A stretch of 64,000 nt of DNA, from positions 132,925 to 196,924 of the forward strand of contig CAWIGE010000019.1 of assembly GCA_963835425.1 (NCBI GenBank), written 5' to 3'. The DNA is from an uncultured Actinomycetes bacterium. GTDB lineage: Bacteria; Actinomycetota; Actinomycetes; Streptosporangiales; Streptosporangiaceae. The notes beneath the pieces are model-generated. The model saw only the letters and a program-made list of their open reading frames with translations. It searched no databases and was not told where the DNA came from. The position numbers were made by a program, and so were the translations under genes. Within the stretch, counting starts at the first letter, position 1; the number at the start of each line of letters is the position of its first letter. Of this stretch, positions 25,839 through 55,064 are shown piece by piece.

Positions 25839-26441
25839 TCACGTCCGGCGGATGGTGGCCAGCCACGCCTGCGCGGTAGGCGTGCCCAGCCCGGGGTTGA
25901 CCTCGAAGGCATCCGCCACGATGGAGGTGACGGCCCAGCCGTCGCTGAAGGCGGCGCGCAGCTCCTCCTGGCGGACCCGGCGGGGCCCGATGGCGCCGGG
26001 CTGGCGCTCGCTGAAGCACATCAGGTAGCAGGTGCCGCCGGACTCCAGCACCGAGGCCAGGCTGGTGACGTACCGGGCGCGGTCGGCGTCATCGAAGACG
26101 TGGAACAGCCCGCTGTCGATGACCGTGTCGAAGGTCAGGCCGAGGCCGTCCAGGCTGAGCGCGTCGGCGACCTCGAACCAGACGGCGAGGCCCCGCTCGC
26201 CTGCCTTGTGACGCGCCTGCTCGATGGCCCGCGGCGAGATGTCCACCCCCACCACGTCCGCGCCCCGGGCGGCGGCCAGCAGCGCGTGGTCCCCGCTGCC
26301 ACAGCCCGCGTCCAGTACCCGCCCGCGCAGCAGGCCGCCGTCGGCCAGGCGGACGAACGCGGGCTGTGGCCGGCCGATGTCCCAGGGCGCGCGCGAGCCC
26401 GCTTCATATGCCGAGTCCCAGCTCGCCGACGGCGTTGTCAT
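25839..26441 (-). CDS. Class I SAM-dependent methyltransferase
   Basis: Motif I ..VLDAGCGSGDHALLAA.. is followed by ..VVGVDISPRAIEQA... 200 aa. Confidence 0.9.
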   Translation of the reverse strand: MTTPSASWDSAYEAGSRAPWDIGRPQPAFVRLADGGLLRGRVLDAGCGSGDHALLAAARGADVVGVDISPRAIEQARHKAGERGLAVWFEVADALSLDGLGLTFDTVIDSGLFHVFDDADRARYVTSLASVLESGGTCYLMCFSERQPGAIGPRRVRQEELRAAFSDGWAVTSIVADAFEVNPGLGTPTAQAWLATIRRT

Positions 26442-26623
26442 GGTGCCTCCACATCCCGACGGCCACGATTGCTGCCCATGTATCAGCGGCCCGGCCGCCT
26501 GCTCCGATCCACAGAAGCAGATACCCAGCGATCCCGCGACAGCGGGTACCCGGGCGGGCGCAGCACCGCTGGCGGTGCTGCCGGACGCCGGCCAGCTGGG
26601 GAAGGCGCAGGCATGGGGGAAGC

Positions 26624-28351
26624 ATGGACACGGCTGTCGGCAGAGACCGGTTCTGGGAGATGTTCAAGGGACGGGCGGTAGTGGTGTCGGAGCTGCCCGC
26701 CGGGCCCAGCAGGGTCCTGGCCAATGTGGCCAGCGAGCTGGCGGGCCGTGATGACGCCTCGCTCCGCACGAGGGCCGAGTACGAGGCGCTGTTCGATCTG
26801 CTGCTGGCGCACGTCCCGCCCGCTCCGCCCGCGAAGCTGAGGCTGGTCGATAAGTCCGGGCTGCCCACCGCCGCCGCCCGGGCTATAGAGGACTACCTCG
26901 GCGCGTCGCTGGGGAAGCAGGAGTTCTTCGACGCGGACATGTACATGGTTCACGTCACCGGATTCGGCCCCGGACGCGGTGTGCTGACCGAGCCGGTGAG
27001 GCCCGGCCGCGATGCCAGTGTCAACGTGTGGAAGACCGATCCGGCCGACCGCCGGCGCGTTGCCGCTCTGGACGGCGGAGGCGCCCTGTTCAGCTCGCAG
27101 GCCTTCTCGCTGAAGAACACCGGGAACCGCACCCTGCGCGCGCCGAAGCGGTCCTGGCGGGTAATTCTCGATGCCGCGGGGCACGAGAACCGCCTCGCCG
27201 GAATGACCCGGATCAATCTCAAGGCGATGTACAACGACCCTTCACAGATGCGCGAGGCGCTGGCCTGGCGACTGTTCCGCATGGCGGATATCCCGGCACC
27301 GCGGCACACGTATGCGAAGCTGGCCTTTGGCTCCGCCTACCGCGGCCTGTTCTCGGTCATCGAACAGGTCGACAAGAGATTCCTGAAAGACCACTTCGGC
27401 GAGAACCACCAGGGGAACCTTTACAAGACCGCCTGCCGCGACCTCGGGTGCGCGTCTCTCGCCTACCGGTCCGGGCCCGACGGTGATGACTCGGGGCGCC
27501 AGTACTTCATCCCGGGAGCCGCTGAGCACACCTACCGCCTCAAGACAAACAAGAACAACCCCGAGGCCAACACGTACGACGACCTGGCCTGCTTCATCAG
27601 GACGATCAACGGCATCGGGCTGCCGGGCGGCGGGGAGCGCTTCGGCACCGACGCCTTCCGCGAGTCGGTGGATGGCATCATGGACGTCAGCACCTTCCTC
27701 CGCTGGGCGGCCATCAACATGCTGCTCGGCAGCTGGGACAACTATTATGCGACCCCGTCGAATTACTACCTCTACAACTCGGGGCGCAGGGGAGCGGCGG
27801 AGGATTTCGTCGGCTCTCCCTATTTCCACTGGATCCCCTGGGACTACGACAATTGCCTGGGGATCGATTATTCGGGCACGCAGTGGCAGTACGCCGACAT
27901 CCTCAACTGGCCGGGCAAGGTGAACCGCCACACCCCGAACATCCCGCTCGTCCGGAACCTGCTCCGCAACCCCGACTACATCGGGTGCTACCTGGACTAC
28001 GTGGAATACATGCTCGATACCGAGTTCAACCCGAGGGCGTTTGCCGCGCAGATCGGGGCGCGCTCGGAGGATGGCCTGTGGCACCGGGTCCGGCGGGCCG
28101 CCTACCTGGAATCCGATACGCCGTATGAGCGGCCGTTCACCGGCCGGCGGTACAGCAACGACGAGGTCTACCAGAGCGGCTTCCGGCAGCACGAGCTGCG
28201 GCACGGGAAGAAGAGGATGGACGGCATCGTCCACTACGTCCGCATGCGCCATGACAGCGCCCGCGTGCAGCTGAAACGGCTAAGGCGGAGGTACCCGCGC
28301 ACGGCCGACGGCTTTGCCCGGCCGGCGGAGCAGCTGCCGCGGGCGGCCTAG
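26624..28351 (+). CDS. CotH kinase-family protein
   Basis: ..NLKAMYNDPSQMREALAWRLFRMADIPAPRHTYAKL..GLFSVIEQVDKRFLKDHFGEN..GNLYK.. and ..WDNYYATPSNYYLY..WDYDNCLG.. match CotH hallmarks. The start is assumed at ATG 26624 inside track ORF 26366..28351. Confidence 0.8.
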   Translation: MDTAVGRDRFWEMFKGRAVVVSELPAGPSRVLANVASELAGRDDASLRTRAEYEALFDLLLAHVPPAPPAKLRLVDKSGLPTAAARAIEDYLGASLGKQEFFDADMYMVHVTGFGPGRGVLTEPVRPGRDASVNVWKTDPADRRRVAALDGGGALFSSQAFSLKNTGNRTLRAPKRSWRVILDAAGHENRLAGMTRINLKAMYNDPSQMREALAWRLFRMADIPAPRHTYAKLAFGSAYRGLFSVIEQVDKRFLKDHFGENHQGNLYKTACRDLGCASLAYRSGPDGDDSGRQYFIPGAAEHTYRLKTNKNNPEANTYDDLACFIRTINGIGLPGGGERFGTDAFRESVDGIMDVSTFLRWAAINMLLGSWDNYYATPSNYYLYNSGRRGAAEDFVGSPYFHWIPWDYDNCLGIDYSGTQWQYADILNWPGKVNRHTPNIPLVRNLLRNPDYIGCYLDYVEYMLDTEFNPRAFAAQIGARSEDGLWHRVRRAAYLESDTPYERPFTGRRYSNDEVYQSGFRQHELRHGKKRMDGIVHYVRMRHDSARVQLKRLRRRYPRTADGFARPAEQLPRAA

Positions 28352-28354
28352 GTC

Positions 28355-29416
28355 ATGGATGGCGCCCGGCGAGGTCCCGGCGAGGCGGGCAGCGGGGGAG
28401 CCGCCGCGGGCCAGGCGGTCCCCTGGCCCGTTCACGCCCTGTTCCAGCAGCGGGTCGACGGGGACGATGCGCTGCTCAAGCTGGCCGGGCTCCGCTTCGC
28501 CCAGATGGGCGTCGCCGCGGAGGTGTACGCCGAGACGCCGGGCCATCTCGAGTACGTCCTGCAGTTCGTGCCCCCCCATGCGCGCCTGCCCATCGTGCAC
28601 CTGAGCCGGGGCATCAACGTGCTGCACGGGCGGGACCGCGCCGTGGTGCGGGAATTCGCCGACCGCTTCGCCGGCCGCGTCGCTGGCCTGGTGGTCCACG
28701 ACAAGCGTGAGATGGGGGCCAAGACGGACCGTCTGCTGGCCGCGCTGCGCGAGCTGAACGCCCACCTGTGCCAGCGCCCGGGCAGCCCACTGCTTTTCCT
28801 CGAATACGCCGCCGGGCTGGATCGCGGCTGGTTCATCGAGGTGGCGGAGCGGCTCCAGGCCGCCGAACGGGTCAGCTGCTGCATTGACGTCGGCCACATT
28901 GGCCTGAGGCAGGCCACCGCCTGGTTCGAACGCCGCCATCCCGGCCTGAACCTCAAGAAGCTCAGCCCGGTGGACGACCGGGTGCCCGGCCTGGTGGCAG
29001 ACGTCCAGGACGCGGTGGGAAGCGCCTTGCCGCATGTGCTCGAGGTCACCCGGTCGCTTGGCCGGCTCGGCAAGCATGTGCACTTCCACCTGCACGACGG
29101 GCATCCCCTCATCCCGGGCCTCCGGGACCACTTCAGCTTCCTGACGCGGCTGCCGGTTCCCTTCAGTTACGGAGGCCGCAGGTCGTTGAGCACGATGTAC
29201 GGGCCGGGCGGGCTGGCTTCCATCGTGTCGGCGGCCGTCGACGCGTGCCCCCCACAGGGAGTCTCCTTCACGATCGAGGTCCACCAGGTCGAGGGCCGGC
29301 TGCCCCTCGCCGATGCCGCGTGGCTCTTTCCCCACTGGCAGGACACCACCAATGCCGAACGGATGAACCACTGGCTCTCCGTCCTGTCGGAGAACGCCCT
29401 GCTCATATCCGGCTGA
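28355..29416 (+). CDS. Hypothetical protein, possibly a xylose-isomerase-like TIM barrel
   Basis: 353-aa ORF starting 3 nt after the CotH stop. ..LVVHDK.., ..CIDVGH.. and ..HFHLHDG.. resemble metal-ligand strands of AP-endonuclease-2/TIM-barrel proteins. The assignment is weak. Confidence 0.45.
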   Translation: MDGARRGPGEAGSGGAAAGQAVPWPVHALFQQRVDGDDALLKLAGLRFAQMGVAAEVYAETPGHLEYVLQFVPPHARLPIVHLSRGINVLHGRDRAVVREFADRFAGRVAGLVVHDKREMGAKTDRLLAALRELNAHLCQRPGSPLLFLEYAAGLDRGWFIEVAERLQAAERVSCCIDVGHIGLRQATAWFERRHPGLNLKKLSPVDDRVPGLVADVQDAVGSALPHVLEVTRSLGRLGKHVHFHLHDGHPLIPGLRDHFSFLTRLPVPFSYGGRRSLSTMYGPGGLASIVSAAVDACPPQGVSFTIEVHQVEGRLPLADAAWLFPHWQDTTNAERMNHWLSVLSENALLISG

Positions 29417-30221
29417 GCCCGGGGGCCAACCGCGCAGGGCAGGACTCAGCGCATGCGACACGCCACGCCGCGCGTTGCGCGTCATTCCGGGGTTTTGTGC
29501 TAACGCTGAGTTACCATGGGGAAACGTGTACGGATATGCGGTTTCGACGGCTCTGTCGCAATTGCCGGGCTCGACGCTGCGACGTGTCATGCCCGCTAGC
29601 GGCGAGACCAGGCCAGTGCCGCCGCTGCGAGCCATACTCGCGGCGGTAAGTCCGTTTGGTCGAAGGTGGCATGACGTCCCAAGATGACGCCAGCAAGCCC
29701 CAGGCACTCCCGGCCGATCACGCGGGCAGCTTGCTATGCCGCCTTCTGATCGCCCACCCCGAGGTCGTCAACATTGAGATCCTCGGCCAGCTTGATCTGC
29801 CCGAGGGGATCATCTACTCGCTCGGTGTGACGCTGCCGGGCGGCCGGGAGCTGCTCATCGACGTCGGGGACGTCTGATCCCACGAGGCGGCGCCCGCGGG
29901 CGGCCGGGTGCAAGCCAGCATCGAGCAGCGCTTCCCGGCCTCCCAGACGGACACGGGTTAGGGCTGGCACGCGGTCCGCCACCCCGGCGGCCGCGCCGAG
30001 CTGACCCTCGCGGACGAGCGCGCCCTGCAGCGCGGCGACGTGGCGACCCTGATCCCGCCCCACGACGTGCACAACCACGGCCATGTCACCGGCACCGGGC
30101 CCAGCCCCTACTCGCTGATCCTGCTGGGCGACAACATGCTGCTGTTCGAGCGCGAGGAGTACGACCCGGAGCAGGGGGCGTGGCAGCGGCTCGCGCCCGG
30201 CGACCCGGGCCGGTCGAACCG

Positions 30222-30416
30222 CTAGGGGACAGCCGGGCCGGGCGCTAACCGGCCGATGTGCGTGTTCGTGATTGAGGTGAACTGGCAGATCAGCGCCGCA
30301 CTGAGCAGGACGAGCCCGACCGCGATCTCGTTGAAGCGGCGCAGCTCACGGCCGCTGGCGGCAAACAGGAACATGAGCATTGCCGCCACGGTCAGGATGA
30401 GGGCGAGGACGTCCAT
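30222..30416 (-). CDS. Small 2-TM membrane protein downstream of the P450 fusion
   Basis: MDVLALILTVAAMLMFLFAASGRELRRFNEIAVGLVLLSAALICQF.. (64 aa). It starts 15 nt after the upstream stop. Confidence 0.4.
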   Translation of the reverse strand: MDVLALILTVAAMLMFLFAASGRELRRFNEIAVGLVLLSAALICQFTSITNTHIGRLAPGPAVP

Positions 30417-30430
30417 GCGGCTCCCAGGGA

Positions 30431-33400
30431 TCAGACCCAGAGGTCGGGTCGGTAACGTTCGGCCGTCTCCATCTCCTGCAGGTAGGCCTCCGCATGCTCG
30501 CGCGGCAGCGACCCATCTTCGGTGACGACGTCGATGAGCGCGGCACGAACGGCGTCGCGCATCGGCTGCGAGCCGCAGACGTAGACGTAGCCGCCGGCGT
30601 CGAGCAGGCGCCAGACTAGCGCACCCTGCGCCCGGATCCGATCTTGGACGTATTCGCGGGAGCCGGTCGGCTCGCGCGACGTCGCCACGTAAACGTGATT
30701 GAGCACCCCCTCGGCAGCGAACTGCTCGATCTCGTCGCGGTAGATGTAGTCGATGGTGCTTGAGCGGATGCCGTTGAAGAGCGCCGCCTCCGCCAGCGAG
30801 ACACCGGCGCGCTTCAGCGCCACCCGTTCCCACAGGAACGCCCGCATCGGGGCGAAGCCGGTGCCGGCGGAGACGAAGATCATCGGCTTCGTCACGTCCG
30901 CCTGCAGGTGGAACCCATCGGCGCTGTCGTGGAAGACGTTCAGGCGGTCGCCCTCCCGGAGCGTGTGCACGTAGTACGAGCTCATCCCGCGGAAACCGGT
31001 GCCGGTCATGCCCGGCACCGGCGTGGCCTCGAGGCCGACGGTCACGTGGGCGACGCCGTCGCCGTGGATCCGCGGGCTGGAGCTCGTCGAGTAGTAGCGC
31101 GGCCGGAGTGGCTGCGCCACCTGCAGGAACTCGAAGATGTTCAGCGAGCAGGACGGGAACTCGTCCAGTAGCCGGAGCACGTGGTAGCCGCCCGCGTCGA
31201 TCGCCGCGCGCAGCGGCGTATCGGGACCGTCCGGTGCCTGCAGGACATCTCTGATCTCCACCAGCCTCGACCGCTCGGCGGGGTCGGCCGCCTTCTCGAG
31301 CAGGAGGTCGAGCAGCGGCACCGTCGGCCTGCCGGTGATGTCAACGAGGTTGGTGAGCACGTTGCGGATCTGGAGCACGACCCCCTTCGGCGCGGCCCGG
31401 GCGTTCATCGTCTTCGGCACCATGAACAGGCCGTCGGGCGCCGCGCCGAGGTGCTGTGCGAGCCGCTCCACCTGCTCCTCGTCGTTCTTCGGGCAGACCC
31501 CGAGGTGGTCGCCGACCCGGTAGGCGACGCCGGGCGGCAGGCTGACCTCCAGATGCCGCGTCCGCTTCGGCGAATCGGCCGGCAGGAGCTCCCGGCACAC
31601 CAGCACGCGCGCCTCGACCGTGTCCATTCCGACGGCATTGCTGAGGATCGCCGGGGCCAGCAGCACCCGTGACTGCGTGCGGCTCCGGCCGCCCGGTTCT
31701 GGCGGGCCGCCGCGCAGCGACGCGGCCCACCTCCGCGACCCCGACGACATGCGGCGCATGATCGAAGAGGCGCTCCTCTCCGGGGGCGCGGGGGCGGCCG
31801 GGTCCGGCGCGCGGTCGTCAGCAAGGAGTGATCTGTGCATCGCGGTGCTGGAGTCGGCGCCCGTCAGCACGCCCGCGGCCGCCTTCTCGGCGGCGTCGCG
31901 CGCGGCCGCGGCCTCGGTCGGCCGCGCCCCGGACAGCTCGAGGAGCGCGGGCCAGACGCGGGCGTTCCAGTCCGCGTGCAAGCGCTCCCACACGGGCGAG
32001 CCCACGTCACCGTAGGCGAGCTCCGCGACCGGCGTGGCGCCGAGCCCAGACAGTTTCTTGTGCACGTAGCGGGGGAACGCCATGAACGCGTTCCACTGGG
32101 TGTTGCCGAGCCCCCAGACGAGATACCGGCAGTTCCGCCACATCTCGCCGCCGGGTTCCGTGCGCTCCAGCCACGCGCTGAACGCCGCCGCGTTCGTGGG
32201 CGGGTTCGACGTGTAGGTGGAGGTCATGACGACGAGCAGCCAGGGGTGCGTGCGGGCCGGGGACTCCGCGAGCTCGTTCAGCGTGATCGCGTCGCTCACG
32301 TAGCCGTGGAAGTGGCTGCGCTCGGCGAACCGCTCAGCCAGCTCCTTGTTCGCGCCGAAGTTGCTGCCATAGGCGATCACGAGATCCCGGTAGGCGCTCG
32401 TCTCGGGAATCTCCGTCGGCTGTCCCCACTCGGGCGCGGCGGCGGCCACGGCGACCGGGGGAGCGGCGGCAGGAGCGGGAGCGGCCGGGCGGTCACGTAC
32501 CACGGCCGCCCGCGGGCGCCCGTCCTGCTCGCGCGGCAGGCGGATGATCGGAACCGCGGCCGGTTTCGTCGTCACGACCGTGTTCTTCGCCACCGTCGCG
32601 CCCGGCGCGAGACGCAGCCGGTAGTGGCGGAAGACCTCGAACAGGACGACGCGGAGCATCATGAACGTGACCTCTTGCGCCATGCACTGCCGCTTCCCGA
32701 TCGAGAACGGGATGTATGCGTGGCGCGGCCGGTCGACGACCTTGTCCATCGCGAACTGGTCCGGATCGAACCTGTCGGCGTCGGGCCCCCAGTAGCGCGG
32801 GTCGCGCTGCGCGGCGAGCGTCCCGACGAGGATCATGTCGTCCTTCCGGATCCGGTAACCGCCGATCATCCCGTCCTTGAGGCTGCGGCGGATCGTGACC
32901 GGCATCGGCGGATAGATCCGCATCGTCTCCTTGATCACCTGCGTCGTGTAGGTCAGCGCCATCAGGTCGTCGTACTGAAGGTCGTAGTCCGGGTCGCGGC
33001 CGGTGATCCCGTCGATCTCGGCGATCAGCTTCTCCTCGACGTCCGGGTGGGTGCCGATGACATAGGCGAGCCACCCACCCGTGATCGACGGCCCGTTGAA
33101 GCCGTTCGAGAGGTGCATGAGGATCTGGTCGCGCATGGTCTCGTGGTCGAGGAACTCGCCCGTCCCGGGATCCGGCGTGGTCACGAGGCGAGTGAGCAGA
33201 TCCGTCGGCTGCCCGAGCGGGCAGGCGTGCGTGCGCGCGCGCACGAGCGCGTCGGCCGTTCTGAATAGCTCCTTGTTGTGACGGCGGTAGCGCCTCCTCC
33301 GCGCGCGCTTCGCACGCCCGGCGAAGAGCGTGGAGTCTGGGTAGGGATCGGCGACGCGCCGGATGCTCTCCTTCGTGCTCTCCGGAACGGCGACCGCGAA

Positions 33401-34711
33401 CGGGTGCGGCTCGCCGCTGCCGTCGAGCAGGCCGAAGTCGTAGTTGCACGCGCCGCGTCCCGAGACCTCCAGCGTGTAGCGCTCCATCCAGGCGCGCGCG
33501 TCGATCGGCTCGTCGTCGGGGATCGCGGACCACGCGGCGACGAGCTTCCGCGCCTGATCCTTCATCTGCCCGAGCTGCGTCCGCTGGTTCATCGGTGAGT
33601 ACCACGGCAGCATCACGCGGCGGATCTGCTCAGTGTGCTCGCCGTCGCCGATCACCGAGATGCCGCCGCCACGGGAGTTGCTCAGCTGGGCGAAGAAGTT
33701 GACCTCCTCGGCGCGCTTGCCGAACTGCTCCTCGTCCGCCGCCACCTCGTCGAGCAACTCGGGGTCCGAGACCACCACGAGCCGCCACTTCTTCGTCGGC
33801 ACTCCGACCGCGTAGATGTGCCCGAACCGGCGGTAGTAGTCGAGCTGAGTGTCGTTGTCGTTCAGGATGTGGAAGTTCGCGAACCGCTCGCCATTCGGCA
33901 CGAGCCAGCGGATCGCGTAGGGGATCTCGAGCGCGCCGTCGCCGTCGCCCGGCGGGGCCGAGGCCAGTTCCAGCCGTTCCCCGGCGAGGGCGCCGGGTGC
34001 CGCGGTGACCGGCGGTGCCTCCGCGGCGGCGGCCGGCGGCGGTGCCTCCCCGGCCTCGGCGTCGGCGTCGGTGACCTGCTGCAGTTCCTGGCCGATCAGC
34101 CGGAACGTGGCGGAGCCGACCTGGACGGTGTCCCCCTCGGACAGCGCCGCGTCCGTAACGCGCTGCCCATTGACGAAGGTGCCGTGACTGCTGTCCAGGT
34201 CCACGATGCGGTATCCGCCCGCCGTGTTGCGCAGTTCCGCGTGCTGGCGGGAGGCGGTGGGATCGGAGACCACGATGTCGTTCTCCGGCGCCCGGCCGAT
34301 GTGCACCGTCGTGGCGGACCGTGGCCGAGCCGCATCCGGCTCACCGTCCGGCTCCGGCTGCGAGCCGTCTTCGCTGACAGTGCAGGTCAGCACCGGCCCA
34401 TCAGCGGGATTGCCGAGCCGGACCTGGCATTCCGCGTCGATCTCGATCCGGTCTACCTGCTGGCCCCGGGCATAGGTGCCATTGGTGCTGCCGTTGTCCG
34501 CCAGCACCCAGCGGCCGTTCTCCAGCTGGAGCATTGCATGGTGCCAGGACACGCGGATATCGGCGATCGCGATGTCGCACTCTGGATCGCGGCCGATCAC
34601 ATACGAAGGGCGCCGGCAGGCTCCGGTCAGATCCCTGGGTCCGTACCAGAAGCGGCGCGGCCCCCCCCGAAAGGGACTTTCCGTCCACGCGCCAACTCTA
34701 GAGCGATTCAT
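30431..34711 (-). CDS. FHA-FHA-cytochrome P450-FMN/FAD/NADPH reductase fusion (CYP102/P450-BM3-like self-sufficient monooxygenase with two N-terminal FHA domains)
   Basis: Intact 1426 aa. Two FHA cores are present (..IGRDPECDIAI..VSWHHAML..NGSTNGTY.. and ..IGRAPENDIVV..ASRQHAEL..DSSHGTFVNG..). The heme loop is PFSIGKRQCMAQ (Cys codon about 32684-32686). Flavodoxin-like LVIAYGSNFGANKELAE..VVMTSTY. FAD/NADPH motifs RHLEVSLP..GDHLGVCP, RYYSTSSSP and IFVSAGTGFAPMRAF. Confidence 0.9.
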   Translation of the reverse strand: MNRSRVGAWTESPFRGGPRRFWYGPRDLTGACRRPSYVIGRDPECDIAIADIRVSWHHAMLQLENGRWVLADNGSTNGTYARGQQVDRIEIDAECQVRLGNPADGPVLTCTVSEDGSQPEPDGEPDAARPRSATTVHIGRAPENDIVVSDPTASRQHAELRNTAGGYRIVDLDSSHGTFVNGQRVTDAALSEGDTVQVGSATFRLIGQELQQVTDADAEAGEAPPPAAAAEAPPVTAAPGALAGERLELASAPPGDGDGALEIPYAIRWLVPNGERFANFHILNDNDTQLDYYRRFGHIYAVGVPTKKWRLVVVSDPELLDEVAADEEQFGKRAEEVNFFAQLSNSRGGGISVIGDGEHTEQIRRVMLPWYSPMNQRTQLGQMKDQARKLVAAWSAIPDDEPIDARAWMERYTLEVSGRGACNYDFGLLDGSGEPHPFAVAVPESTKESIRRVADPYPDSTLFAGRAKRARRRRYRRHNKELFRTADALVRARTHACPLGQPTDLLTRLVTTPDPGTGEFLDHETMRDQILMHLSNGFNGPSITGGWLAYVIGTHPDVEEKLIAEIDGITGRDPDYDLQYDDLMALTYTTQVIKETMRIYPPMPVTIRRSLKDGMIGGYRIRKDDMILVGTLAAQRDPRYWGPDADRFDPDQFAMDKVVDRPRHAYIPFSIGKRQCMAQEVTFMMLRVVLFEVFRHYRLRLAPGATVAKNTVVTTKPAAVPIIRLPREQDGRPRAAVVRDRPAAPAPAAAPPVAVAAAAPEWGQPTEIPETSAYRDLVIAYGSNFGANKELAERFAERSHFHGYVSDAITLNELAESPARTHPWLLVVMTSTYTSNPPTNAAAFSAWLERTEPGGEMWRNCRYLVWGLGNTQWNAFMAFPRYVHKKLSGLGATPVAELAYGDVGSPVWERLHADWNARVWPALLELSGARPTEAAAARDAAEKAAAGVLTGADSSTAMHRSLLADDRAPDPAAPAPPERSASSIMRRMSSGSRRWAASLRGGPPEPGGRSRTQSRVLLAPAILSNAVGMDTVEARVLVCRELLPADSPKRTRHLEVSLPPGVAYRVGDHLGVCPKNDEEQVERLAQHLGAAPDGLFMVPKTMNARAAPKGVVLQIRNVLTNLVDITGRPTVPLLDLLLEKAADPAERSRLVEIRDVLQAPDGPDTPLRAAIDAGGYHVLRLLDEFPSCSLNIFEFLQVAQPLRPRYYSTSSSPRIHGDGVAHVTVGLEATPVPGMTGTGFRGMSSYYVHTLREGDRLNVFHDSADGFHLQADVTKPMIFVSAGTGFAPMRAFLWERVALKRAGVSLAEAALFNGIRSSTIDYIYRDEIEQFAAEGVLNHVYVATSREPTGSREYVQDRIRAQGALVWRLLDAGGYVYVCGSQPMRDAVRAALIDVVTEDGSLPREHAEAYLQEMETAERYRPDLWV

Positions 34712-34917
34712 GTGAAAGTAAAACAGTTTTTGCTGAACCGTTCAGGGGCTTTCGCCGTCGCGGCGGTGCGCGCCACTGCAGTGCGAGCCAGCGCCGTTCG
34801 CCAGCTCGGCCAGATGGTCACGTTCGGGTCGAATCAGCCGAGGGGAACGGGGCCGCTGTAGGCCGTCACGCTCCGTTTCGCAACGTCCTCGTTGTGTGAA
34901 CCCAGCCCGCAGCGGCC

Positions 34918-35330
34918 ATGCCCGGTCATGTGCCCCGGACTGTCCCCTATATCGGCTCCAAAACCCAGAATGGTTTCGGCACCTTTGGCCAGCCGGACAT
35001 TGCTGCGACGCTGGTGGCGGCGGGCAAAGCGATCAGGGAAGTCTGCTACCAGAAATGGTGGGTGCACCTGCGCCACCGGCCGGAATCCGGCGGCGCGATC
35101 GTCTACCTGCAGAAAACCGGGCAGGGCGGGACCGTCGAGGGCCATGTGAGCGATACGGTTCTCAATTCGCAGGCGGTGCAGGCCAGCTTCAAGGCGAACA
35201 ACAGCTATTTCTGCCCCAAGCCTTCCCCGGAGGCTCGCCCACCCATCCGGTGTATCCGGCCGGGCCTGGCATCCATGCCGGGATCCAGCGCCACCGCGAC
35301 GATCCTCAACCTACATCCCGCTGTGTGAAC
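34918..35330 (+). pseudogene. Partial, diverged second copy of the vanadium-haloperoxidase-like gene (internally deleted)
   Basis: ..PYIGSKTQNGFGTFGQPDIAATLVAAGKAIREVCYQKWWVHLRHRPESGGAIVYLQKTGQGGTVEGHVSDTVLNSQA.. parallels 36549-36790 with scattered substitutions. It then jumps to a GIHAGI-like segment. Confidence 0.6.
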
Positions 35331-35564
35331 TCGGCCCGCAGTGGCCGGCGTACCGTTGCCGGTCCTGCCCGGGTGCCCGCCAGTGGACCCTGGGGCGGCG
35401 ACGGGGTATCACGCTGGCAGGTCATCCTGGTCATACCCGGCCATGTGTCCCGGACTGCTCCGTCATCCGGGCCGATGGACCTCACCGGGCAAGGTCCTTC
35501 ACGGCCAAGGCGTCAGCTTGACCGTGACTCAAGCGAGACTTAATTTGCCCATGCCACTATCCGG

Positions 35565-37215
35565 GTGGGCAAAGACTGGAGCACGACACAGGATCCGGAT
35601 GTAGAAACGATGGCCCGGGCCGGGCCAAGCGACGCTGCCGCCCTCAGGCCCGGACCACCGGATGGAGCCAGGAAGACACTTAACGCGGAGCTGAACCGGC
35701 GACCGGCGGCCGGGTCTGGCGATCCTGGGCATTGCGTACCCGAACGGCAGGGGAGCGACGCCTTCGCCGCCCCTCCGGCCCAAGTCGATAATGGCGACGA
35801 GGCGCGCTACGGCGATAAATCGGGAACCCATACGAAAGATGTGCTGCAATCAAACGTCGGCGTGGTCGATCCCGCTGCCTACCAATCGTTCAAGGCCGCG
35901 CTGAGCAGTGGCGACCCGGCTGACTTCGAGAAGATCGTCGTGGGTGGGTCGCGTACCCTCAATGGGCCGCAGGCGGCCTGGCGTTCTACCTGGACAGCCT
36001 GGATGGCAGCCAGTACGCCGTCCCGCCCGCTCCCGAGCTGGCGAGCGAGGCCTACACGACGGAACTCGTGGAGCTCGACTGGGCCTCACTACTGAGGGAT
36101 GTCGCGTTCACCACCTATCCGGCGAGCAGCTGAGGCCATGCGGGCGGCGGCCGAGTTATCGTCCACGCCGACATACGCGGGCCCACGTGACGCCGCCAAT
36201 CAGGTCACGCCGGGGCTGTTGTTCCGTGGCGGCCTCGCCGGCGAGACGGTTGGGCCTTATGTATCACAGTTCCTGCTCCAGCCGACCGCGCTGGGATCGC
36301 TGCCGATCACCCGGAAGTACATCGGCAACAAGGCCGGTGAAGACTTCATGACGGGGCCCGCCGAGTTCCTGAATGTGCAGAACGGCATCCCCACCGGGAA
36401 GAGCCTTACCCCGGGCACGGCACTTTATCTGCACAACGGGCGCGACCTGGCCGCCTACACGCATGATGACGTCCTGTATCAGGCATATCTCATCGCGTAC
36501 CTCGTGCTGACCCACAATCAACAACGGCACCCCGGCGACCCTGAACCGGGCAACCCCTATATCGGTTCCAGTACCCAGAATGGGTTCGGCACTTTGGGCC
36601 AGCCTGACATTGCTGCGACACTGGTAGCGGTGGCGGGCAAAGCCATCAGAGAAGTGTGGTACCAGAAATGGTGGATGCACCTGCGCCACCGGCCGGAATC
36701 CGGCGGCGCGATCGTCTACCTGCAGAAAACGGGGCAGGGCGGAACCGTCGAGGGCCACGTCAGCGATACAGTTCTCAATTCGCAGGCGGGCAGACCAGCT
36801 TCAAGGCAAACAATAGCTACTTTCTGCCACAAGCCTTCCCCGAAGGTTCGCCAACCCGTCCGGCATATCCGACCGGTCATGGCGCAGTGGCTGGAGCCTG
36901 CATCACGGCACTGAAGTTCTTCTTCGATGGCACCTTCGCAATCGAGAACCCGCTCGTGCCGTCCAGCGACGGAACGGCCACCGCCGCCTGCACTGCCCCG
37001 GCGGGCGAGGCGCCACTGACCGTGAACGGCACAACATCAGCTTCGGTCATGGCATCCATGCCGGGATCCACGGGCGCAGCGATACCGATACGTCGATCCA
37101 GCTGAGCGAGGCGGTGGCGCTGAGCCACCTGCAGGACCACGCTCACACCTACAACGAGCGACTCCGTATCTCGCTCACCAGGGTGGACGGCACCACCGCG
37201 ACCATCACCAACTCC
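35565..37215 (+). pseudogene. Vanadium-dependent haloperoxidase-like (PAP2 superfamily) gene, multiply frameshifted or deleted
   Basis: Family landmarks are spread over three frames: NGDEARY..KDVLQSNVGVVDPAAYQSFKAALSSGDPADFEKIVVGGSRTLNGPQ, GLAFYLDSLDGSQYAVPPAPELASEAYTTELVELDWASLLRDVAFTTY, WYQKWWMHLRHRPE, LPQAFPEGSPTRPAYPTGHGAVAGACITALKFFFDG and GIHAGIHGRSDTDTS..TYNE. Confidence 0.65.
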
Positions 37216-37239
37216 CGAAGCCGGGCCAGGCTCCCTGGC

Positions 37240-37585
37240 TCAGCTTGGCCCATGGCCGCGGGTCGCTGAGTTGGTGCCGCCAGGCTGCGGCTGCGTACTC
37301 GCTGGGTCGCGTCGCCAGGTCAGCGCCACGGTGAAGTTCGCCGTAGTGCTGACAGCAGCGATGAACGCCCCGGCCTCGGCGTGGAGGTCGAGGCCGAACT
37401 CGACGTGCACCTCGTCTGGTACCTCGGCGAGAGAGCGCAACTGCGTGATGACGCCTTCCACCGCAGGCTGGACGCGGCCAACCGCCTCTTCGAAGGTCTG
37501 CCGCGCCCGTTCAACTACTTCGGGCCCCTTCAGGCTGGCGCGTCACCGGGCCCGTGTGATGCCCGGTGACGTTGACCAGCACTGA
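37240..37585 (-). pseudogene. 3' part of a Trypco1-like (CU044_2847-family-like) gene interrupted by the IS; also carries a frameshift
   Basis: ..VLVNVTGHHTGPVTR / ASLKGPEVVERARQTFEEAVGRVQPAVEGVITQLRSLAEVPDEVHVEFGLDLHAEAGAFIAAVSTTANFTVALTW... The family call is from a recalled motif (PDEVxVEFGxKxxAEAGxxIAKxxxEANFxVxLTW). The frame changes at about 37525-37535. Confidence 0.6.
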
Positions 37586-37604
37586 TACGGCAGCTGTAGT
37601 TCGT
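37586..37604. repeat. Terminal inverted repeat of the IS (left end in window coordinates)
   Basis: tacggcagctgtagttcgt. Confidence 0.9.
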
Positions 37605-37609
37605 TGTGA

Positions 37610-38968
37610 TCATGGTGTTGTCTCGGCATAGGCGTTCCAGCGTTGGTGGGCTTGGCGGGCGCGGTGCTGGTGGCGGCGCCGCCAGGTGGACCAGTGCAGC
37701 CGGTGGGGCCGGTCTCGGTGGGGTGGTGGGATGACGGTGTCGCGCAAGAGCCGCAGCAGTTCCGGGATGGTGATCGGGATCAGCCCGGCGTCCGGGTCTG
37801 AGCCGGCGTCGTGCTGGCGCTGCACGGCGACGGCGACGGCGAGGTAGAGGTAGGCGAGCAGGCAGATCGCGGTCCAGCGGTGCCAGGACTTCCAGCGGAT
37901 GACCTGCCCGGCGTCCAGGCCGGTGGCTCTGCTTGGCTGAGCTGGTGATCTTCCTCGATACGCCACCTGGCCGACTGCGATGGCGATCAGCCGGGACAGC
38001 GGGACCGGCCCGGGTGTCCAGCACCGGTAGAAGGACAGCTTGCCGGTATAGCGGTGCCGCCGGACCAGCAGCACGCTGTGCCCGTCCTGGTGCCCGTCGG
38101 GGGTGTCGTCGCTGGTCACCTGGAGCATGGCCCAGTCGTAGTGCCGGGTGCCCTTGGTCCCGGACCCGGTGCGCATCCGGTGCCAGGCGCGGGCGGGAAT
38201 CAGCGGCACAGCTTGGGCCGCGGTCAGGGCGCGGCCCGAGCCGGCGGTGATGGCGTGGTTGGCGCGGACCGCCAGCACATAGCCCATGCCGCGCTGGCGG
38301 ATGCCGCGGCGCAGCTGGCGGCCGCCGTAGACCTCATCACCGGCCACGAAGGCGGCGCGGATCCCCGCGCGCATGCGCGCGGTCCAGCAGGCCGCCGGCC
38401 AGCTGCGGCTTGGTGGCGAACATCACCTCCTCCGGGACCCCGGCCAGCTCGCGGTGCTCCTCATCGCAGCGCAGCGCTTCGGGCAGGTACAGAGCCCGGC
38501 CGATCAGCGCGTGCCCGCGGCGGGTGGCATAGGTCAAGGTGACCGCCACCTGGCACAGCGCGATCCCGCCCACGGTGCCGCTGTACTGGCGGGCCGCGCC
38601 GGCCGCAGTCGGCTGAGGACTTCTCATCGGCGGTCTCATCCACGATCAGCACCGCATCCCCGTCATCGAGATGGCTGACCGCCCAGGCCGCCGCGGCGTC
38701 CAGGATCTGCTGGTCGTCCCAGACCGCCCGCGACAGCAGGTGCTGCAGCCGGTGCGGCCCGCGGTGCCCGGCCGCCTCGGCGATGGTCCAGCAGTTGTGA
38801 TCTTCCAGCTCCATCAGCAGCCCGCTGCACCATCTGGCTGCAGGACTGGCGGGTCTCCCGCCGGGGAAAGCACCCGGCCACCCGCCCGAGCAGATCCGCC
38901 AGCAGCGCCGACCGGGCATCATCAGATAGGGTGGCAGCAGCGGCTGCCGCGTCTTGATTGTGTCTCAC
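37610..38968 (-). pseudogene. IS701-family transposase gene, broken into at least 4 frames
   Basis: The pieces are MRHNQDAAAAAATLSDDARSALLADLLGRVAGCFPRRETRQS, ..LLMELEDHNCWTIAEAAGHRGPHRLQHLLSRAVWDD..AVLIVDETADEK, ..ARQYSGTVGGIALCQVAVTLTYATRRGHALIGRALYLPE..FATKPQLA and ..AFVAGDEVYGG..WHRWTAICLLAYLYLAV. An RWRIEEDHQ segment is readable only in a shifted frame. Confidence 0.8.
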
Positions 38969-39040
38969 AACTCGTCATGATCGCGGCAGCCGCACCTTTA
39001 TGCGGTCATCCTGCTGACCTGCACAAACAACCCGAAGATC

Positions 39041-39059
39041 ACGAACTACAGCTGCCGTA
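39041..39059. repeat. Terminal inverted repeat of the IS (right end in window coordinates)
   Basis: acgaactacagctgccgta is the exact reverse complement of 37586-37604. Confidence 0.9.
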
Positions 39060-39105
39060 ACTGAGCCTCCTGATTCCAGCGGGAATTCGACCAACTGTCC
39101 CATCG
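39060..39105 (-). pseudogene. 5' part of the IS-interrupted Trypco1-like gene
   Basis: The reverse strand reads ATG GGA CAG TTG GTC GAA TTC CCG CTG GAA TCA GGA GGC TCA GT = MGQLVEFPLESGGS. An RBS ggaagggag lies upstream. It joins in frame to 37585 once the IS and one TSD copy are removed. Confidence 0.65.
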
Positions 39106-39276
39106 CCACCACTCCCTTCCAGGCGATTCCCGGGCTCGCTGAGCGAGATCGGTGACCGCCACTTCAGGCCTAGAGAGAAAGAAACTAGCAGCGAGAATGG
39201 TTATAGGTCTGCGCATACCCGCAGGTCACAAGGGGGGAGTGGCGGAGTTGTCAGATGAAGGGCCTGCCCAACCAGA

Positions 39277-40852
39277 GTGGGCGGACGGGATCCGCGGCAG
39301 GAACAGCCAGTGACGGACACACCGCAGGAGAAGCCACCGCCAGAACGCGGCAAGGTCCAGTGGGGCGACATCCTGTCTGAGCTAATGTATTTGCTCCGTT
39401 ACATGCTTGGTATGGGGGTGATGCGGGCATCTGGACGGCCCCGGCACCCGGTCAGCGGCGGCGAGCCTCTTTATGCGCGTGCGGTGCTGGAAAGCGCGAA
39501 GATCGAAGAACGCTACTTCTACGAGCAGGAGATCTCCCGGAACCCGCACAGCAAGATGTTGCGCCGTCCAAAGGGGAAAATAGAACTCACGCTCCCCTAT
39601 GACGGAGATCGGTATTTCACCAGGCAAGCGTACACAGATATCACCCGTCTCTATAACCCCACCTATGGTGATGCCCGCGCGCTTGTCGGACACTTGGCGC
39701 TTACCGGCTACGGGCAGACGAACCTCGGCGGTCTGCTGGACCTAGGCGAGACCTACGGATCCATCCCGCTTAAGGTAGCTGTCCCGGCCGCTTCCGGCCA
39801 GCCTGCTGACTTGATAGCTGATCGCAGCAGCAGCGTCTTCAGCTGCGAGTACGAGCCGAGCACCGATCGGATCAAGGTCAGGCCGGTCACCGTCGAGATC
39901 GACCTGCTCGACCCCGATAGTTCCGGATTTTCTGCCCGTGAGGGTGAGGAGGGGACGGCCGAAGAGATCATGCAGCAGGTCAGCTTCCGGTCCGAACTGC
40001 TGCTCCGCATGAAGGTCTGGCTCCACGCTCCCGGTGCGCCGGATGGGGTCGTACCCGCGGAGGTGAAGAAGGTGACTGTTAGCTGGCCGACCATCACGTC
40101 CCTCAGGTCACTCAGCCTGACGGTGAACGGGGAGGATCACCCGGTCAGGTACAACCCCAAGGATCGCTGCCTCGAGTGGTTCAAGGTCTCGATGACCCTG
40201 AGCCCTGACGCACCTGCCGGAGACATGCAGACCTATACCAGCGGCGTAATGGAGTTGCGGATTCCGGAGCCGGGAGAGCTCTACCAGGAGCGTAACCTGA
40301 CGGGCACGGTAGAGGTGAGGATGGGCAAGCTCCTGTCCGGCATGGAGGCAAGGCTCTACAGCAGCGACCGGGTCTATTCGGCACCGGCCAAGGCTTAAGC
40401 TCCATACTTACATATCCACTGACTTTGACCTGATCCTAGGTGACGCCTTCGCTCGGCGGGAGCTCACGCCATACCAGCACCTCCACTTCGATGAAGTGAT
40501 ACCGAGCGAGATGCGGATAAGCGACATCAAGATCGCGTTGACCAACCGTGGCTTCAGGCTCACGCATGAATGGCTAGATAGTGGCACGGAGGGCCGGTGG
40601 CTGCGGGCGGAGCGGTTCGAGGGCCCAGACCGGATGGTACTCGTTCTCTACATCCAGGGGATATTGCATCAGGCGAGGCGAGATTCACGGATCCCCGGCG
40701 GCATCACCTACCGGAGCAACCTGGATAGCGGCGAGATACGAATCTACGTCCGTGGTCAGCTGAAAAGGAAGAGCCAGCCAGTTATCCATGAGATGAACGC
40801 GCTGCGCAGGGCTCTCCGCGAGCGTTTCGACCACCTCCCGGCTAGACGCTGA
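39277..40852 (+). CDS. Island gene 1: large uncharacterised protein, paralogue of island gene 2 (one apparent frameshift at about 40385-40400 joins track ORFs 39277..40398 and 40496..40852)
   Basis: The second ORF has no RBS, and its frame stays open back to 40382 (..LKLHTYISTDFDLILGDAFARRELTPYQHLHFDEVIPSEM..). The joined protein aligns collinearly with gene 2 (see findings). Lower-GC codon usage. Confidence 0.55.
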
Positions 40853-40876
40853 TGAAGGAAGCTGGAGGGCAGCCTG

Positions 40877-42585
40877 ATGGATGGCACGCCCAAAGAGCGC
40901 GCTCCGCGGGCGCGCTGCTATAAGTGTGGATCATCTCAGATCACCCGCATGTGCCACCATTGCGGGAGAATTGGCTGCAGCGCGCATGTCACGCCAACCC
41001 GCAAGCTCTGGGGCCGGCCGCTTAGCCGGGAACTGCGGGGCCTGGACATGGACAAGAAGGCTGCTTATCACTGCCCCGATTGCGCTCATCTCGGCAGTCC
41101 CGTGCTGACGGTTGGCGTCATAGGGGTGATAGTGGCACTGGCGGGTGCCGTTGTCCTCTGGCTGAGTTTCTGGGCCGGCCTGGCCATGGTTCTGCTGGGC
41201 GCAGCAATAGCGATTGGAAGCTATATCGCAGGCCGCCGCAGAGAGGCAAAGCGAGAGAGATTGCCGCTTCCAGTCCTGCCGAGACTGGAAGAACTCAGCG
41301 TGAGAGAAGAACTCAGTGGCAGGGTCATACTCTGGCCGAGCGGTGATTACGACCAGCCCACACCTGATCCGGTACAGGGTGAACTAACAGCTAATCTGGT
41401 GCTCGGTAAGACCGACCGTCGCCGTCTCGAGGGGTACGTACACAGGCACCGGATGCCACAAGGTAGCGACGTTAAGTTCTGTGCGGGATTCCTGGTTCTC
41501 CAGGGCCAGGTCGGCAGCAGTTTGTCACGCATTTTTCCCGACCTATCTATCCCGCTCGATGGCACGACCTCCGACTATCTGGTGTTTGATGTGGAACGTC
41601 ATCGCGCATCGAGTTCATATCGTATCGACTACACTTATGATCTGATAGCAGGCCGGGAAGTTAAGAAGGTTCCGGTCTGGATCACACCTGCTATTGCCCC
41701 CAGATCCGACAAGCGTGGACTGGAGCTGCAGATTCAGTGGGTTGATATGGGTAACCAGGAGCACAGCTTTCGTTGGAGAACGTTGAGTCACTGGAATTGA
41801 GGGTTCCAGTGGAATGGGGGGATGTTGTAGACTTCAACAAGCCCGTCCTATCGAGCCTCCGGGCAAACGAAGAGGACGGTCAAGCGCGAGGCTCATTGAA
41901 TGGGTACAGTTGCGGCCCAGCGAGCAGGAGAACCAGCGCAAGCGGCTTGATTTTGTTGTACAGTTTGAAGACAAGATCAAAGAGGGAGATGCCATATCTG
42001 GCCGCCTCGATATGGTCTTCAAAGGAGCCATCTCGGGGATCGAGCGGATCCATCTCTACAGTCCCCTTGGGGATCGGCGGATACATTCATCTGCCGCGAA
42101 CGTTACAACCCATGTGATGCTGGACTTCGAGCTCAGCCTGACGAGCACCCGCTATCAAGACGTCAGGTTGGTTCCTGATCGCAGGATGTCGGAAGATCGG
42201 GATAGGGGCGAGGCCAGAGAATTCCCGGCAGTGATACCGAACGACAGATACCGTCATCAGACTCACGAATGCCCTGAGCGAGCAGGGATACTACATAAAG
42301 CGGATCATAGAGAACCCGCGGAGAAGTGGCCCCCGGGCGAATCTGGTCCGTCGTTACTGGGACATCGCGGGTCGGCATTATGCGGGTGTCTACCCAATAG
42401 ATTTCCATATCATCCTGACCGGTGACGAGATTCAACGCGGTGGAATACGCGCACATAGTGGTACGACGAAGGCGTGCGTAACTGTGCAAGGATCATACGC
42501 GAACCCGGATATGCAAAATCGCGTCGAGAGGGCATGGGACAGGCTATACGACCTGATAGTGAGCACGCTGGAGTCACTGTCGTGA
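40877..42585 (+). CDS. Island gene 2: double Zn-ribbon + 2 TM helices + beta-rich region + C-terminal domain shared with gene 1 (three apparent frameshifts at about 41770, 41888 and 42245)
   Basis: RBS ggaggg precedes ATG 40877. CYKCG..MCHHCGRIGC..YHCPDC, then VLTVGVIGVIVALAGAVVLWLSFWAGLAMVLLGAAIAIGSYIAG. A sensible reading continues through frames 41773.. and 41814.., then a third frame to the TGA at 42583-42585 (..IRLTNALSEQGYYIKR..RVERAWDRLYDLIVSTLESLS*). Confidence 0.6.
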
Positions 42586-42738
42586 CCCGCACAGTCCGGG
42601 GCGGCTCGACCGGATCCACCAGATGGCTGGGAAGAACCCGTTGGCGGCCTGGCCGTCGCTGGCAGGCAAAATGACTCCGGCCCGGATCACGTCCCGAGGA
42701 ACACCGCGGTGGCTAGGGCGGCGATGATAGGAGGCTTC

Positions 42739-42963
42739 ATGTCCTGGGAGTGCGCTGAATGCAATGTCAAGGAATCGGCCGGCAGGATGATCGACGCCAT
42801 CTGCCATCATTGTGGCAAGCCGCTGTGCCGTGATGACCGGATTGAGATCGCTGACAATGCCTTCAGCAGTGGTGGGTCAACTGGCCCAACGGCGATCCAC
42901 TGTCGTGCCTGCAGGCGGAAGCATCATGCCAGTGCCGTGGCGCTGGGCGTGGCAGAGCGATGA
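42739..42963 (+). CDS. Island gene 3: small stand-alone Zn-ribbon protein homologous to the N-terminus of gene 2
   Basis: RBS aggagg (42729-42734) sits 4 nt before ATG 42739. The protein reads MSWECAECN..ICHHCGKPLC..IHCRACRRKHH. Its stop overlaps the gene 4 start (ATGA at 42960-42963). Confidence 0.6.
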   Translation: MSWECAECNVKESAGRMIDAICHHCGKPLCRDDRIEIADNAFSSGGSTGPTAIHCRACRRKHHASAVALGVAER

Positions 42964-44247: not shown

Positions 44248-44308
44248 CCCGGCTGTCCTGCCCGTTGGGTGGCCAAGATCCGCAGCTGTTGCCGCGCAGG
44301 TAGCCGCC

Positions 44309-54807: not shown

Positions 54808-55064
54808 GTGACCAGCGTGGCCGAGGCCCCGCAGATACTCCACTGAAGTTCGGCGCGTGTTGCCCATGACAAATGTCATGACCGGTGGCGCGGGCCGTCC
54901 GCCCGGGCCAGGCGCCCGGGGGTTACCTATCCTATTTACCAATAAATGGTATGCCTGACGTAAAGACTGATTCGGGCGACATAACGGATGTGCCCGGCCG
55001 GCCTGGCTGCCACGCATAAGGCGGTTGTGGCTCATGAGCAAGTCCCTGGCCACGGCCCTAATAA

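Follow-up and report, generated by a model that had tools for sequence, protein, structure and literature searches.

A clade with two N-terminal FHA domains in a discrete family of BM3-like single-chain P450-reductase proteins with a small membrane partner gene

The window analysed here is a 64,000-nucleotide stretch of contig CAWIGE010000019.1; gene coordinates are positions in this stretch and L-numbers denote related loci. The gene under study lies at 30431-34711 on the minus strand (read on the plus strand, the same interval has stops throughout) and is followed by a small gene for a predicted membrane protein. An original prediction had described it as an intact CYP102 monooxygenase of the P450-BM3 type preceded by two complete FHA cores. 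The features of the locus are as follows.

30431-34711, minus strand: the whole gene, an open frame of 1426 codons plus stop, encoding FHA-FHA-P450-flavodoxin-FAD/NADPH reductase (translation, Pfam, structure matches).
34611-34688, minus strand: family-type 5' end in another frame, GTG at 34688-34686 and then VDGKSLSGGAAPLLVRTQGSDRSLPA (homolog and DNA alignments).
34379-34606, minus strand: FHA1, residues 36-111, with G40-R41, S55-x-x-H58 and S75-T-N77-G-T (Pfam; closest structure Rv1747 FHA-1, 6ccd; predicted local confidence, pLDDT, about 90).
34091-34306, minus strand: FHA2, residues 136-207, with G139-R140, S154-x-x-H157 and S174-S-H176-G-T (Pfam; closest structures GarA, 6i2q, and Rv1747 FHA-2, 6cah; pLDDT about 90).
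33938-34090, minus strand: variable Ala/Pro-rich linker between FHA2 and P450, residues 208-258 (low conservation, pLDDT below 50).
32537-33937, minus strand: P450 heme domain, residues 259-725, opening with the family motif LEIPYAIRWLVP.GERFANF (Pfam, alignments).
33080-33115, minus strand: I-helix HLSNGFNGPSIT, residues 533-544, with N539-G540 at the places of BM3 E267-T268 (invariant in the family).
32672-32707, minus strand: heme-thiolate loop FSIGKRQCMAQE, residues 669-680, with Cys676 (alignment).
31937-32386, minus strand: flavin mononucleotide (FMN) domain, flavodoxin-like, residues 776-925 (Pfam, structure matches, predicted structure).
31676-31807, minus strand: Ser/Arg-rich hinge insert, residues about 969-1012, core S-x-S-S-I-M-R-R-M-S-S-G-S-R-R (alignments, predicted disordered).
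30434-31618, minus strand: FAD- and NADPH-binding domains, residues 1032-1426, with the C-terminal D-L-W stacking motif (Pfam, structure matches).
30222-30416, minus strand: partner gene of 64 codons with two predicted transmembrane helices, MDVLALILTVAAMLMFLFAASGRELRRFNEIAVGLVLLSAALICQFTSITNTHIGR.., a GGGAG ribosome-binding site and a start 15 nucleotides past the P450 stop.

In the Pfam scan, FHA (PF00498) was matched in two stretches, residues 36-111 and 136-207, with 136.7 bits against a curated cut-off of 20.7, followed by p450 (PF00067, residues 291-707, 190.7 bits), Flavodoxin_1 (PF00258, residues 779-903), FAD_binding_1 (PF00667, 1033-1246) and NAD_binding_1 (PF00175, 1279-1389), so that both predicted N-terminal FHA domains were recovered far above the cut-off. 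In the NCBIfam scan of the 1426-residue protein no model reached its cut-off, OdhI being listed with 94.7 bits. Among solved structures, the best matches are full-length proteins of the BM3 type, 9wuc (E-value 9.5e-114) and 8dme (E-value 2.4e-101), which align collinearly over residues 295-930 and 1029-1425; the expected collinearity with P450-BM3 was thus borne out from about residue 295 onward. The P450, FMN-flavodoxin and FAD/NADPH modules follow in this order in one chain, which is the layout of the class VIII self-sufficient fusions of P450 with cytochrome P450 reductase (CPR). The redox motifs are canonical (FSIGKRQCMAQ at 669-679, the EXXR motif as KETMRIYPP, YGSN at 781-784, GTGFAP and the C-terminal DLW), and RHLE..GDHLGV from residue 1052 and RYYSTSSSP at 1205-1213 complete the set of BM3-like motifs that had been quoted for the protein. 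The Ala after the heme Cys (CMAQ), also pointed out earlier, is present and invariant in 108 homologs. Judged from these domains and motifs, the protein is a BM3-like single-chain P450 with a diflavin reductase, carrying two FHA domains.

The CYP102 label had to be abandoned. By custom in P450 nomenclature, members of one family share at least 40% identity in the P450 domain. In the HMMER alignment with 9l7u, the heme domain is identical to BM3 at 109 of 388 positions (28%), and against 85 P450-reductase representatives from outside the family the identity is at most 31.1%, with a median of 26%; membership in CYP102 was therefore rejected, these values being below 40% and the acid-alcohol pair E267-T268, which serves oxygen activation, being replaced by N-G. 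In an exhaustive library of 50% clusters, the family is reduced to a single full-length representative (P0122, a form with cytochrome b5 domains), after which the score drops from 1307 to about 440 bits for the next fusions, with an overall identity of 27-34%; no FHA domains were found in the other top-150 representatives. The I-helix reads H-L-S-N-G-F-N-G-P-S-I-T, and in three independent pairwise alignments N536-G537-F538-N539-G540 falls on BM3 A264-G265-H266-E267-T268. N539 is present in all 108 homologs and G540 in 107 of them, and in other phyla the b5-carrying and bare forms keep the helix unchanged too. The heme loop F-S-[IV]-G-x-R-Q-C-M-A-Q-E shows the same invariance across phyla in the FHA, b5 and bare forms. 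By these identities and motifs, the proteins form a discrete, unnamed soil-bacterial family of single-chain NADPH-driven P450 enzymes that is not CYP102. The invariant N-G of the I-helix means that oxygen activation cannot follow the proton relay of BM3; other P450s without the conserved Thr use substrate-assisted or non-monooxygenase chemistry. Moreover, an invariant P-T-K-K-W-R patch aligns with the R47-Y51 channel mouth of BM3, which gives a hint, and only a hint, of compatibility with an anionic amphiphile as substrate.

Within this family, orthologous bodies are 58-74% identical over residues about 230-1425 and are preceded by one of four N-terminal architectures.

Two cytochrome b5 domains (PF00173): about 1360-1400 residues, in Chloroflexota and Thermoleophilaceae.
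One b5 domain: about 1220-1310 residues, in Gaiellaceae and in metagenome-assembled genomes (MAGs) labelled Verrucomicrobiota and Frankiales.
No N-terminal module: about 1110-1150 residues, in Gaiellaceae and Tepidiformaceae.
Two FHA domains: about 1350-1500 residues, in the clade of the window.

Tandem b5 domains (HPGG twice) before the same body were seen at about 9380-9900 in each of L003, L004, L005, L007, L016 and L017, from MAGs labelled Chloroflexota, Solirubrobacterales and Proteobacteria; the long-read MAG copies L007, L014, L016 and L017 contain frame breaks. A quick maximum-likelihood tree of the P450-reductase body, with 92 family members and 6 outgroups, united the FHA forms in one clade (SH-aLRT 99). 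Bare forms are its sister, one-b5 and bare forms surround it, and two-b5 forms branch off towards the root. As to phylogeny, a check that the original prediction had proposed within CYP102, the FHA carriers thus make up one clade within the unnamed family instead. The tree indicates a single origin of the FHA form, independent of the root, while an order from b5 through bare to FHA would be inferred only with the root on its long branch.

The FHA form is widely represented. A search with residues 1-700 gave at least 495 homolog clusters, and among the best 120 of these (68-90% identity) nearly all have FHA, p450, flavodoxin, FAD and NAD domains. The homologs came from JGI, ENA, NCBI and Logan assemblies, and all members seen are from MAGs or metagenomes; the carriers are Streptosporangiaceae, Trebonia sp. 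and uncultured Actinomycetota, and now and then a record is labelled Gaiellaceae or Thermoleophilia. The same continuous architecture is shared by more than 100 full-length proteins of independent assemblies, and on long contigs of relatives (0.22-1.75 Mb) it is called as a single gene. The fusion is, on this comparative evidence, conserved and under selection. In the GTDB family of the window, only about 7 of 121 species genomes searched contain an ortholog, which makes it an accessory gene. In a literature search of incomplete coverage, no paper joining FHA with a P450 fusion and no description of a natural bacterial b5-P450-reductase triple fusion were found, nor does a 2025 CYP102 survey mention FHA. 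The earlier suspicion that such a fusion was uncharacterised is in line with this search, and the survey of its spread that had been proposed places it in more than 100 proteins in one clade of the family tree; NCBI records name them 'cytochrome P450' only.

Both FHA domains retain their ligand contacts among the 108 full-length homologs. In FHA1, G40-R41 is found in every sequence that covers it, and S55, H58 and S75-T76-N77 are invariant or nearly so; in FHA2, the same is true of G139-R140, S154, H157, S174 and G177-T178, and position 176 is Asn in 88 of the 108 and His in 18 (the window and 17 further sequences). The same alignment shows variation in the first 34 residues and in the linkers 112-135 and 208-258. 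The description as two complete FHA cores therefore holds in that both match Pfam with their contact residues, and is in doubt as regards the full 11-strand sandwich, the first strand of FHA1 being off-frame in the window copy as assembled (see below); FHA2 has His176 for Asn. As to the origin of the pair, the best non-self match of both domains in the own genome is one protein on contig C2 (93 bits per domain, 54-56% identity), with all other FHA proteins of that genome at 51 bits or less. This protein of 927 residues has the order FHA-FHA-ABC_tran-ABC2_membrane, the Rv1747 architecture, and its FHA pair is collinear with that of the P450 over both domains with 48% identity (E-value 2e-57). 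The same kind of match was obtained in three further genomes of the GTDB family, and the one inspected (G103) proved to be an FHA-FHA-ABC transporter as well. The closest solved structures are Rv1747 FHA-1 (6ccd) for FHA1, and GarA (6i2q, 54.7 bits) and Rv1747 FHA-2 (6cah) for FHA2. Considering the collinear 48% identity, the far-best paralog and the Rv1747-like closest structures, we assume that an Rv1747-type ABC transporter was most probably the source from which the FHA module was taken over as a whole. In Rv1747 itself, PknF phosphorylates T152 and T210 in the linker between the FHA domains and is a positive regulator of the transporter (PMC3138270, PMC8339232). The transporter gene of the own genome is located at C2 611390-614173 (L021:891-3674, minus strand), and a Hanks-type kinase (915-residue frame) is found about 5 kb off, at C2:619287-619955.

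Of the related loci, 14 continue beyond the P450 stop, and the partner gene followed it in every one of them (56-64 residues, 72-97% identical); it was called independently by the gene callers in related loci and is spread over Actinomycetota, Chloroflexota and MAGs labelled Verrucomicrobiota and Proteobacteria. Its product consists of two hydrophobic helices with a basic loop between them, for which Pfam gave sub-threshold DUF matches only. It is probably a membrane tether or partner of the soluble enzyme, which would point to a membrane-associated or amphiphilic substrate. The partner gene is the sole conserved neighbour; a PspA gene is near the P450 gene in L018 and L019 only. A CotH kinase gene (26366-28351) was considered as a conserved partner and rejected, since its synteny is limited to L020, a very close relative, and does not extend to L018 or L019. 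Together with the next gene, of 353 codons (26366-29416), it is kept in L020 with 93-95% identity; the nearness of these genes to the P450 gene reflects local synteny without a functional link. In L008 and L020, a gene for a flavin monooxygenase (FMO)-like protein directly precedes the P450 gene; its homolog in the window is displaced to 44312-45826, so that the window has an insertion of about 9 kb at 34900-44300. In addition, a convergent plus-strand gene at 29656-30222 matches only residues 95-190 of a 190-residue L020 gene product (86% identity), and a separate L020 gene of 68 codons matches 29671-29874, so that it is either a broken gene of the window or a case of differing gene calls.

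The FHA clade differs from its sisters also in the hinge between the FMN and FAD domains, where the FHA-type proteins have a median of 39 extra residues. An insert of at least 25 residues is present in 98 of 116 FHA-type proteins and absent in all 54 b5-type and bare proteins. It is rich in Ser (19%) and Arg (16%), with Ala, Gly and Pro at 11-13% each, and keeps the core S-x-[S/T]-S-[IV]-M-R-x-M-S-x-G-S-R-R across the clade. The Ser/Arg/Pro-rich insertion of about 100 residues reported earlier has that length relative to BM3 and amounts to only about 40 residues (about 969-1012) relative to sister members. A whole-body scan of the FHA clade against the others revealed no clade-specific fixed residues in the P450-reductase body outside the insert; the catalytic machinery is thus shared, and the accessories alone differ. 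AlphaFold2 was run on residues 30-1035 with a shallow alignment (predicted template modelling score, pTM, 0.48); it gave pLDDT of about 90 for both FHA domains and of about 30 for the insert, where S-S-I-M-R-R forms a short helix of low confidence, and the linkers came out disordered, while the N-terminal third of the P450 was poorly predicted and the model is uninformative on FHA docking. In CPR and BM3, the hinge governs the movement of the FMN domain in diflavin reductases, and in the reductase of eukaryotic nitric-oxide synthase an autoinhibitory insert and phosphorylation sites gate electron transfer by the FMN domain. Intramolecular binding of the FHA domains to a phosphothreonine of the hinge was considered and found unsupported, as no Thr is conserved in the insert.

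The 5' end of the window copy is peculiar. Homologs open with V/M-(D/G)-G-K-S-L-S-G-G-..-P-L-L-V-R-T-Q-G-S-D-R-S-L-P-A-G-P-S-Y-V-I-G-R, unlike the window protein, which opens with MNRSRVGAWTESPFRGGPRRFWYGPRDLTGACRR-PSYVIGR. When the DNA was aligned with L008 and L020, its two nearest relatives, the window proved to be 2 nucleotides short within CTGCCGGC[CG]GCCCTTCG, between 34612 and 34611. The GTG start and the first 26 family codons, VDGKSLSGGAAPLLVRTQGSDRSLPA, are kept in the window off-frame from the rest of the gene, and with them the native first strand of FHA1, PLLVRTQGSDRSLPA, which is complete in the relatives. Residues 1-34 of the 1426-residue reading are out-of-frame sequence, and the long frame reaches ATG 34711 solely via TGG where L008 has TAG. 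The other 1392 codons run on without a break, at 88-94% identity to relatives, and all catalytic motifs are intact. The gene is accordingly intact, as originally stated, in having one open frame of 1426 codons, yet only formally so, given the 2 nucleotides missing near its 5' end. Genes for an ABC-2 permease and an ABC ATPase at 53060-54882 are 92-99% identical to L020 and are nevertheless split over two or three frames; such breaks in near-identical genes suggest consensus indel errors and bear on every call of a pseudogene in the window. Since other window genes near-identical to L020 thus also show frame breaks, we consider an assembly indel to be the likelier source of the gap, with a real lesion as a substantial second possibility. 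If it is an assembly error, CCGGCCGGCCC would stand within 34550-34720 and the protein would have about 1419 residues from GTG 34688. Just upstream of the start region, at 34700-34730, there is an AT-rich stretch, AAAACTGTTTTACTTTCA, conserved in L008 (9975-10000) and unusual in a genome of about 70% GC, which may be a promoter or leader element; a sigma-70 consensus scan gave no match at this stretch, and promoter, terminator and Rfam scans of 29.5-35.5 kb gave no match.

Taken together, the locus can be explained by an enzyme of an unnamed family outside CYP102 with a swappable N-terminus, an FHA pair derived from a transporter, a membrane partner and control by kinases, and we hold this explanation as a whole to be fairly probable. 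The enzyme would be an NADPH-driven oxygenase acting at the membrane, and its FHA pair would dock on a phosphothreonine of an autophosphorylated Hanks-type kinase or another phosphoprotein, or alternatively on phosphorylated copies of the enzyme itself, as in Rv1747. Docking would bring its activity, its assembly or its localisation under the control of Ser/Thr kinases, whether by clustering, by recruitment or by phosphorylation of the disordered segments, and the Ser-rich hinge, governing the swing of the FMN domain, would be a candidate control point and phospho-acceptor. The further step, that the FHA module and the disordered hinge insert make up a kinase-operated switch in which docking, on an autophosphorylated Ser/Thr kinase or on the phosphorylated linkers of one another, clusters the enzyme as in Rv1747 and hinge phosphorylation gates the FMN-domain swing and with it electron delivery to the heme, is put forward as a speculation that we regard as unlikely.

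Other explanations were weighed against this one. That the fusion is an artefact, with separate FHA and P450 genes merged by mis-assembly or a lost stop codon, would agree with the low-complexity, poorly conserved linker between FHA2 and P450 and with several truncated database entries, but it is refuted by the full-length proteins, more than 100 in one frame from independent assemblies, and by the single gene on contigs of up to 1.75 Mb, and its probability is negligible. A more serious case is that of a decaying window copy, in which a real deletion of 2 nucleotides leads to early termination from the family start, and the product from ATG 34711 has a crippled FHA1, so that the locus is a pseudogene or a form with a single working FHA. 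The gap is seen against two relatives, there are broken genes nearby and an inserted island at 35-44 kb, and the alternative frame is open via one silent-site change only (TGG for the TAG of L008); however, the 1392 uninterrupted codons with their whole catalytic motifs and 88-94% identity do not look like decay, and frame breaks occur also in genes 98-99% identical to L020, as is typical of consensus indel errors. We therefore regard decay as quite possible and still the less probable reading of this copy. As to function, the protein might be a plain CYP102-type fatty-acid hydroxylase with decorative domains, carrying out sub-terminal hydroxylation of free fatty acids with ordinary oxygen activation. 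Its best solved matches are all CYP102 (CYP102L1 146 bits, BM3 about 125 bits), the domain order is identical and P-T-K-K-W-R stands at the BM3 R47 region; these likenesses are set against an identity of 27-28% to BM3, the invariant N-G in place of E267-T268, and a membrane partner and b5 domains of sister forms that are foreign to CYP102, and they leave this explanation improbable.

The FHA pair could also be a phosphorylation-independent module for interaction or oligomerisation, like GarA/OdhI, which tethers the P450 to a partner or promotes a dimer without kinase input. The FHA pocket of GarA/OdhI binds metabolic enzymes without phosphate, and BM3-type enzymes need a dimer for inter-subunit electron transfer. 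FHA2 matches GarA (54.7 bits) and Rv1747 FHA-2 equally closely, OdhI was the NCBIfam model listed, no kinase is linked to the gene, and the clade-specific linkers have no conserved Thr acceptor. Yet the full phosphothreonine-contact set is invariant in both FHA domains, the module as a whole comes from a transporter module with a characterised homolog under PknF regulation, and the same GarA pocket is still switched by phosphorylation, and so we find this alternative doubtful. To return to the explanation by kinase control, a search of the genome for kinase partners, as the original prediction had proposed, found at least 20 Hanks-type kinases genome-wide, none of them on the contig or a conserved neighbour. 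Several points count against this explanation. There is no Pkinase (PF00069) match on the contig of the window and no adjacent or syntenic kinase or phosphatase in related loci, where no biosynthetic or catabolic context is conserved around the gene either. In about 18 of the 116 FHA-type proteins the insert is reduced or missing, one having none, and there is no conserved Thr in it (at most 36% Thr at any column), the residue that FHA domains read in its phosphorylated form. The FHA pair and the insert arose on one branch, so that finding them together counts as a single event, which is suggestive but no statistical evidence. Furthermore, the tree is rooted on long outgroup branches, and if the gap at the 5' end is real, FHA1 of the window copy is without its first strand.

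To our knowledge, bacterial P450s are regarded as constitutively competent and controlled at transcription. If the link to kinases is true, no P450 before this one would have had an apparent connection to protein-kinase signalling, and if the FHA module is kinase-responsive, a conserved clade of more than 100 proteins would make post-translational control of P450 electron transfer accessible to direct test. The proposed switch, if true, would be a bacterial counterpart of the phospho-regulated nitric-oxide synthase reductase and the first post-translationally signalled bacterial P450. From the view of evolution, one catalytic body with a swappable slot for two b5 domains, one, none or two FHA domains is an unusual experiment, and the absence of the acid-alcohol pair throughout the family suggests that its chemistry or its proton delivery differs from that of BM3. 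Self-sufficient P450s are prized biocatalysts, and a well-separated new family of them is of practical value. For annotation, the generic name 'cytochrome P450' and a small partner gene that is easily missed deserve attention.

Compared with known systems, the FHA form is a variant among the self-sufficient P450-reductase fusions and the FHA-regulated actinobacterial enzymes, and its sequences are already public under generic names. It shares with BM3 and other class VIII enzymes (8dme, 9wuc and CYP102L1, 6n6q) the domain order, collinearity over about 1000 residues and the reductase motifs (YGSN, RYYS.SSSP, GTG.AP and C-terminal D-L-W), and differs from BM3 in N-G for E267-T268, CMAQ for C-x-G, a hinge longer by about 40-100 residues, N-terminal accessory domains and an obligatory small membrane-protein partner. 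With the b5-P450-reductase form it has in common 58-74% body identity, an identical I-helix and heme loop and the same downstream membrane gene, whereas that form has one or two b5 domains in place of the two FHA domains and no Ser/Arg-rich hinge insert. Nitric-oxide synthase likewise has a heme-thiolate oxygenase and a diflavin reductase in one protein and, close to the FMN domain, a disordered insert specific to the lineage as a plausible element of control, and its reductase aligns with an E-value of 1e-49; the insert here, however, is in the FMN-FAD hinge and not inside the FMN domain, and there is no calmodulin site. Rv1747 also has tandem FHA domains at the N-terminus of an enzyme, FHA1 resembling FHA-1 and FHA2 resembling FHA-2, but on an ABC transporter instead of a P450-reductase; moreover, the linker between the FHA domains is here about 25 residues long and poorly conserved, with no Thr matching T152 or T210 (T135 belongs to the first strand of FHA2), and no kinase gene adjoins the P450 gene. 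Finally, GarA/OdhI provides the precedent in Actinomycetota of an FHA domain that controls an enzyme directly, to which the 54.7 bits between FHA2 and GarA correspond, although GarA is free-standing with a single FHA domain and an N-terminal ETTS self-binding motif, while the P450 protein has its FHA domains in covalent fusion with the enzyme and conserves no motif of this kind.

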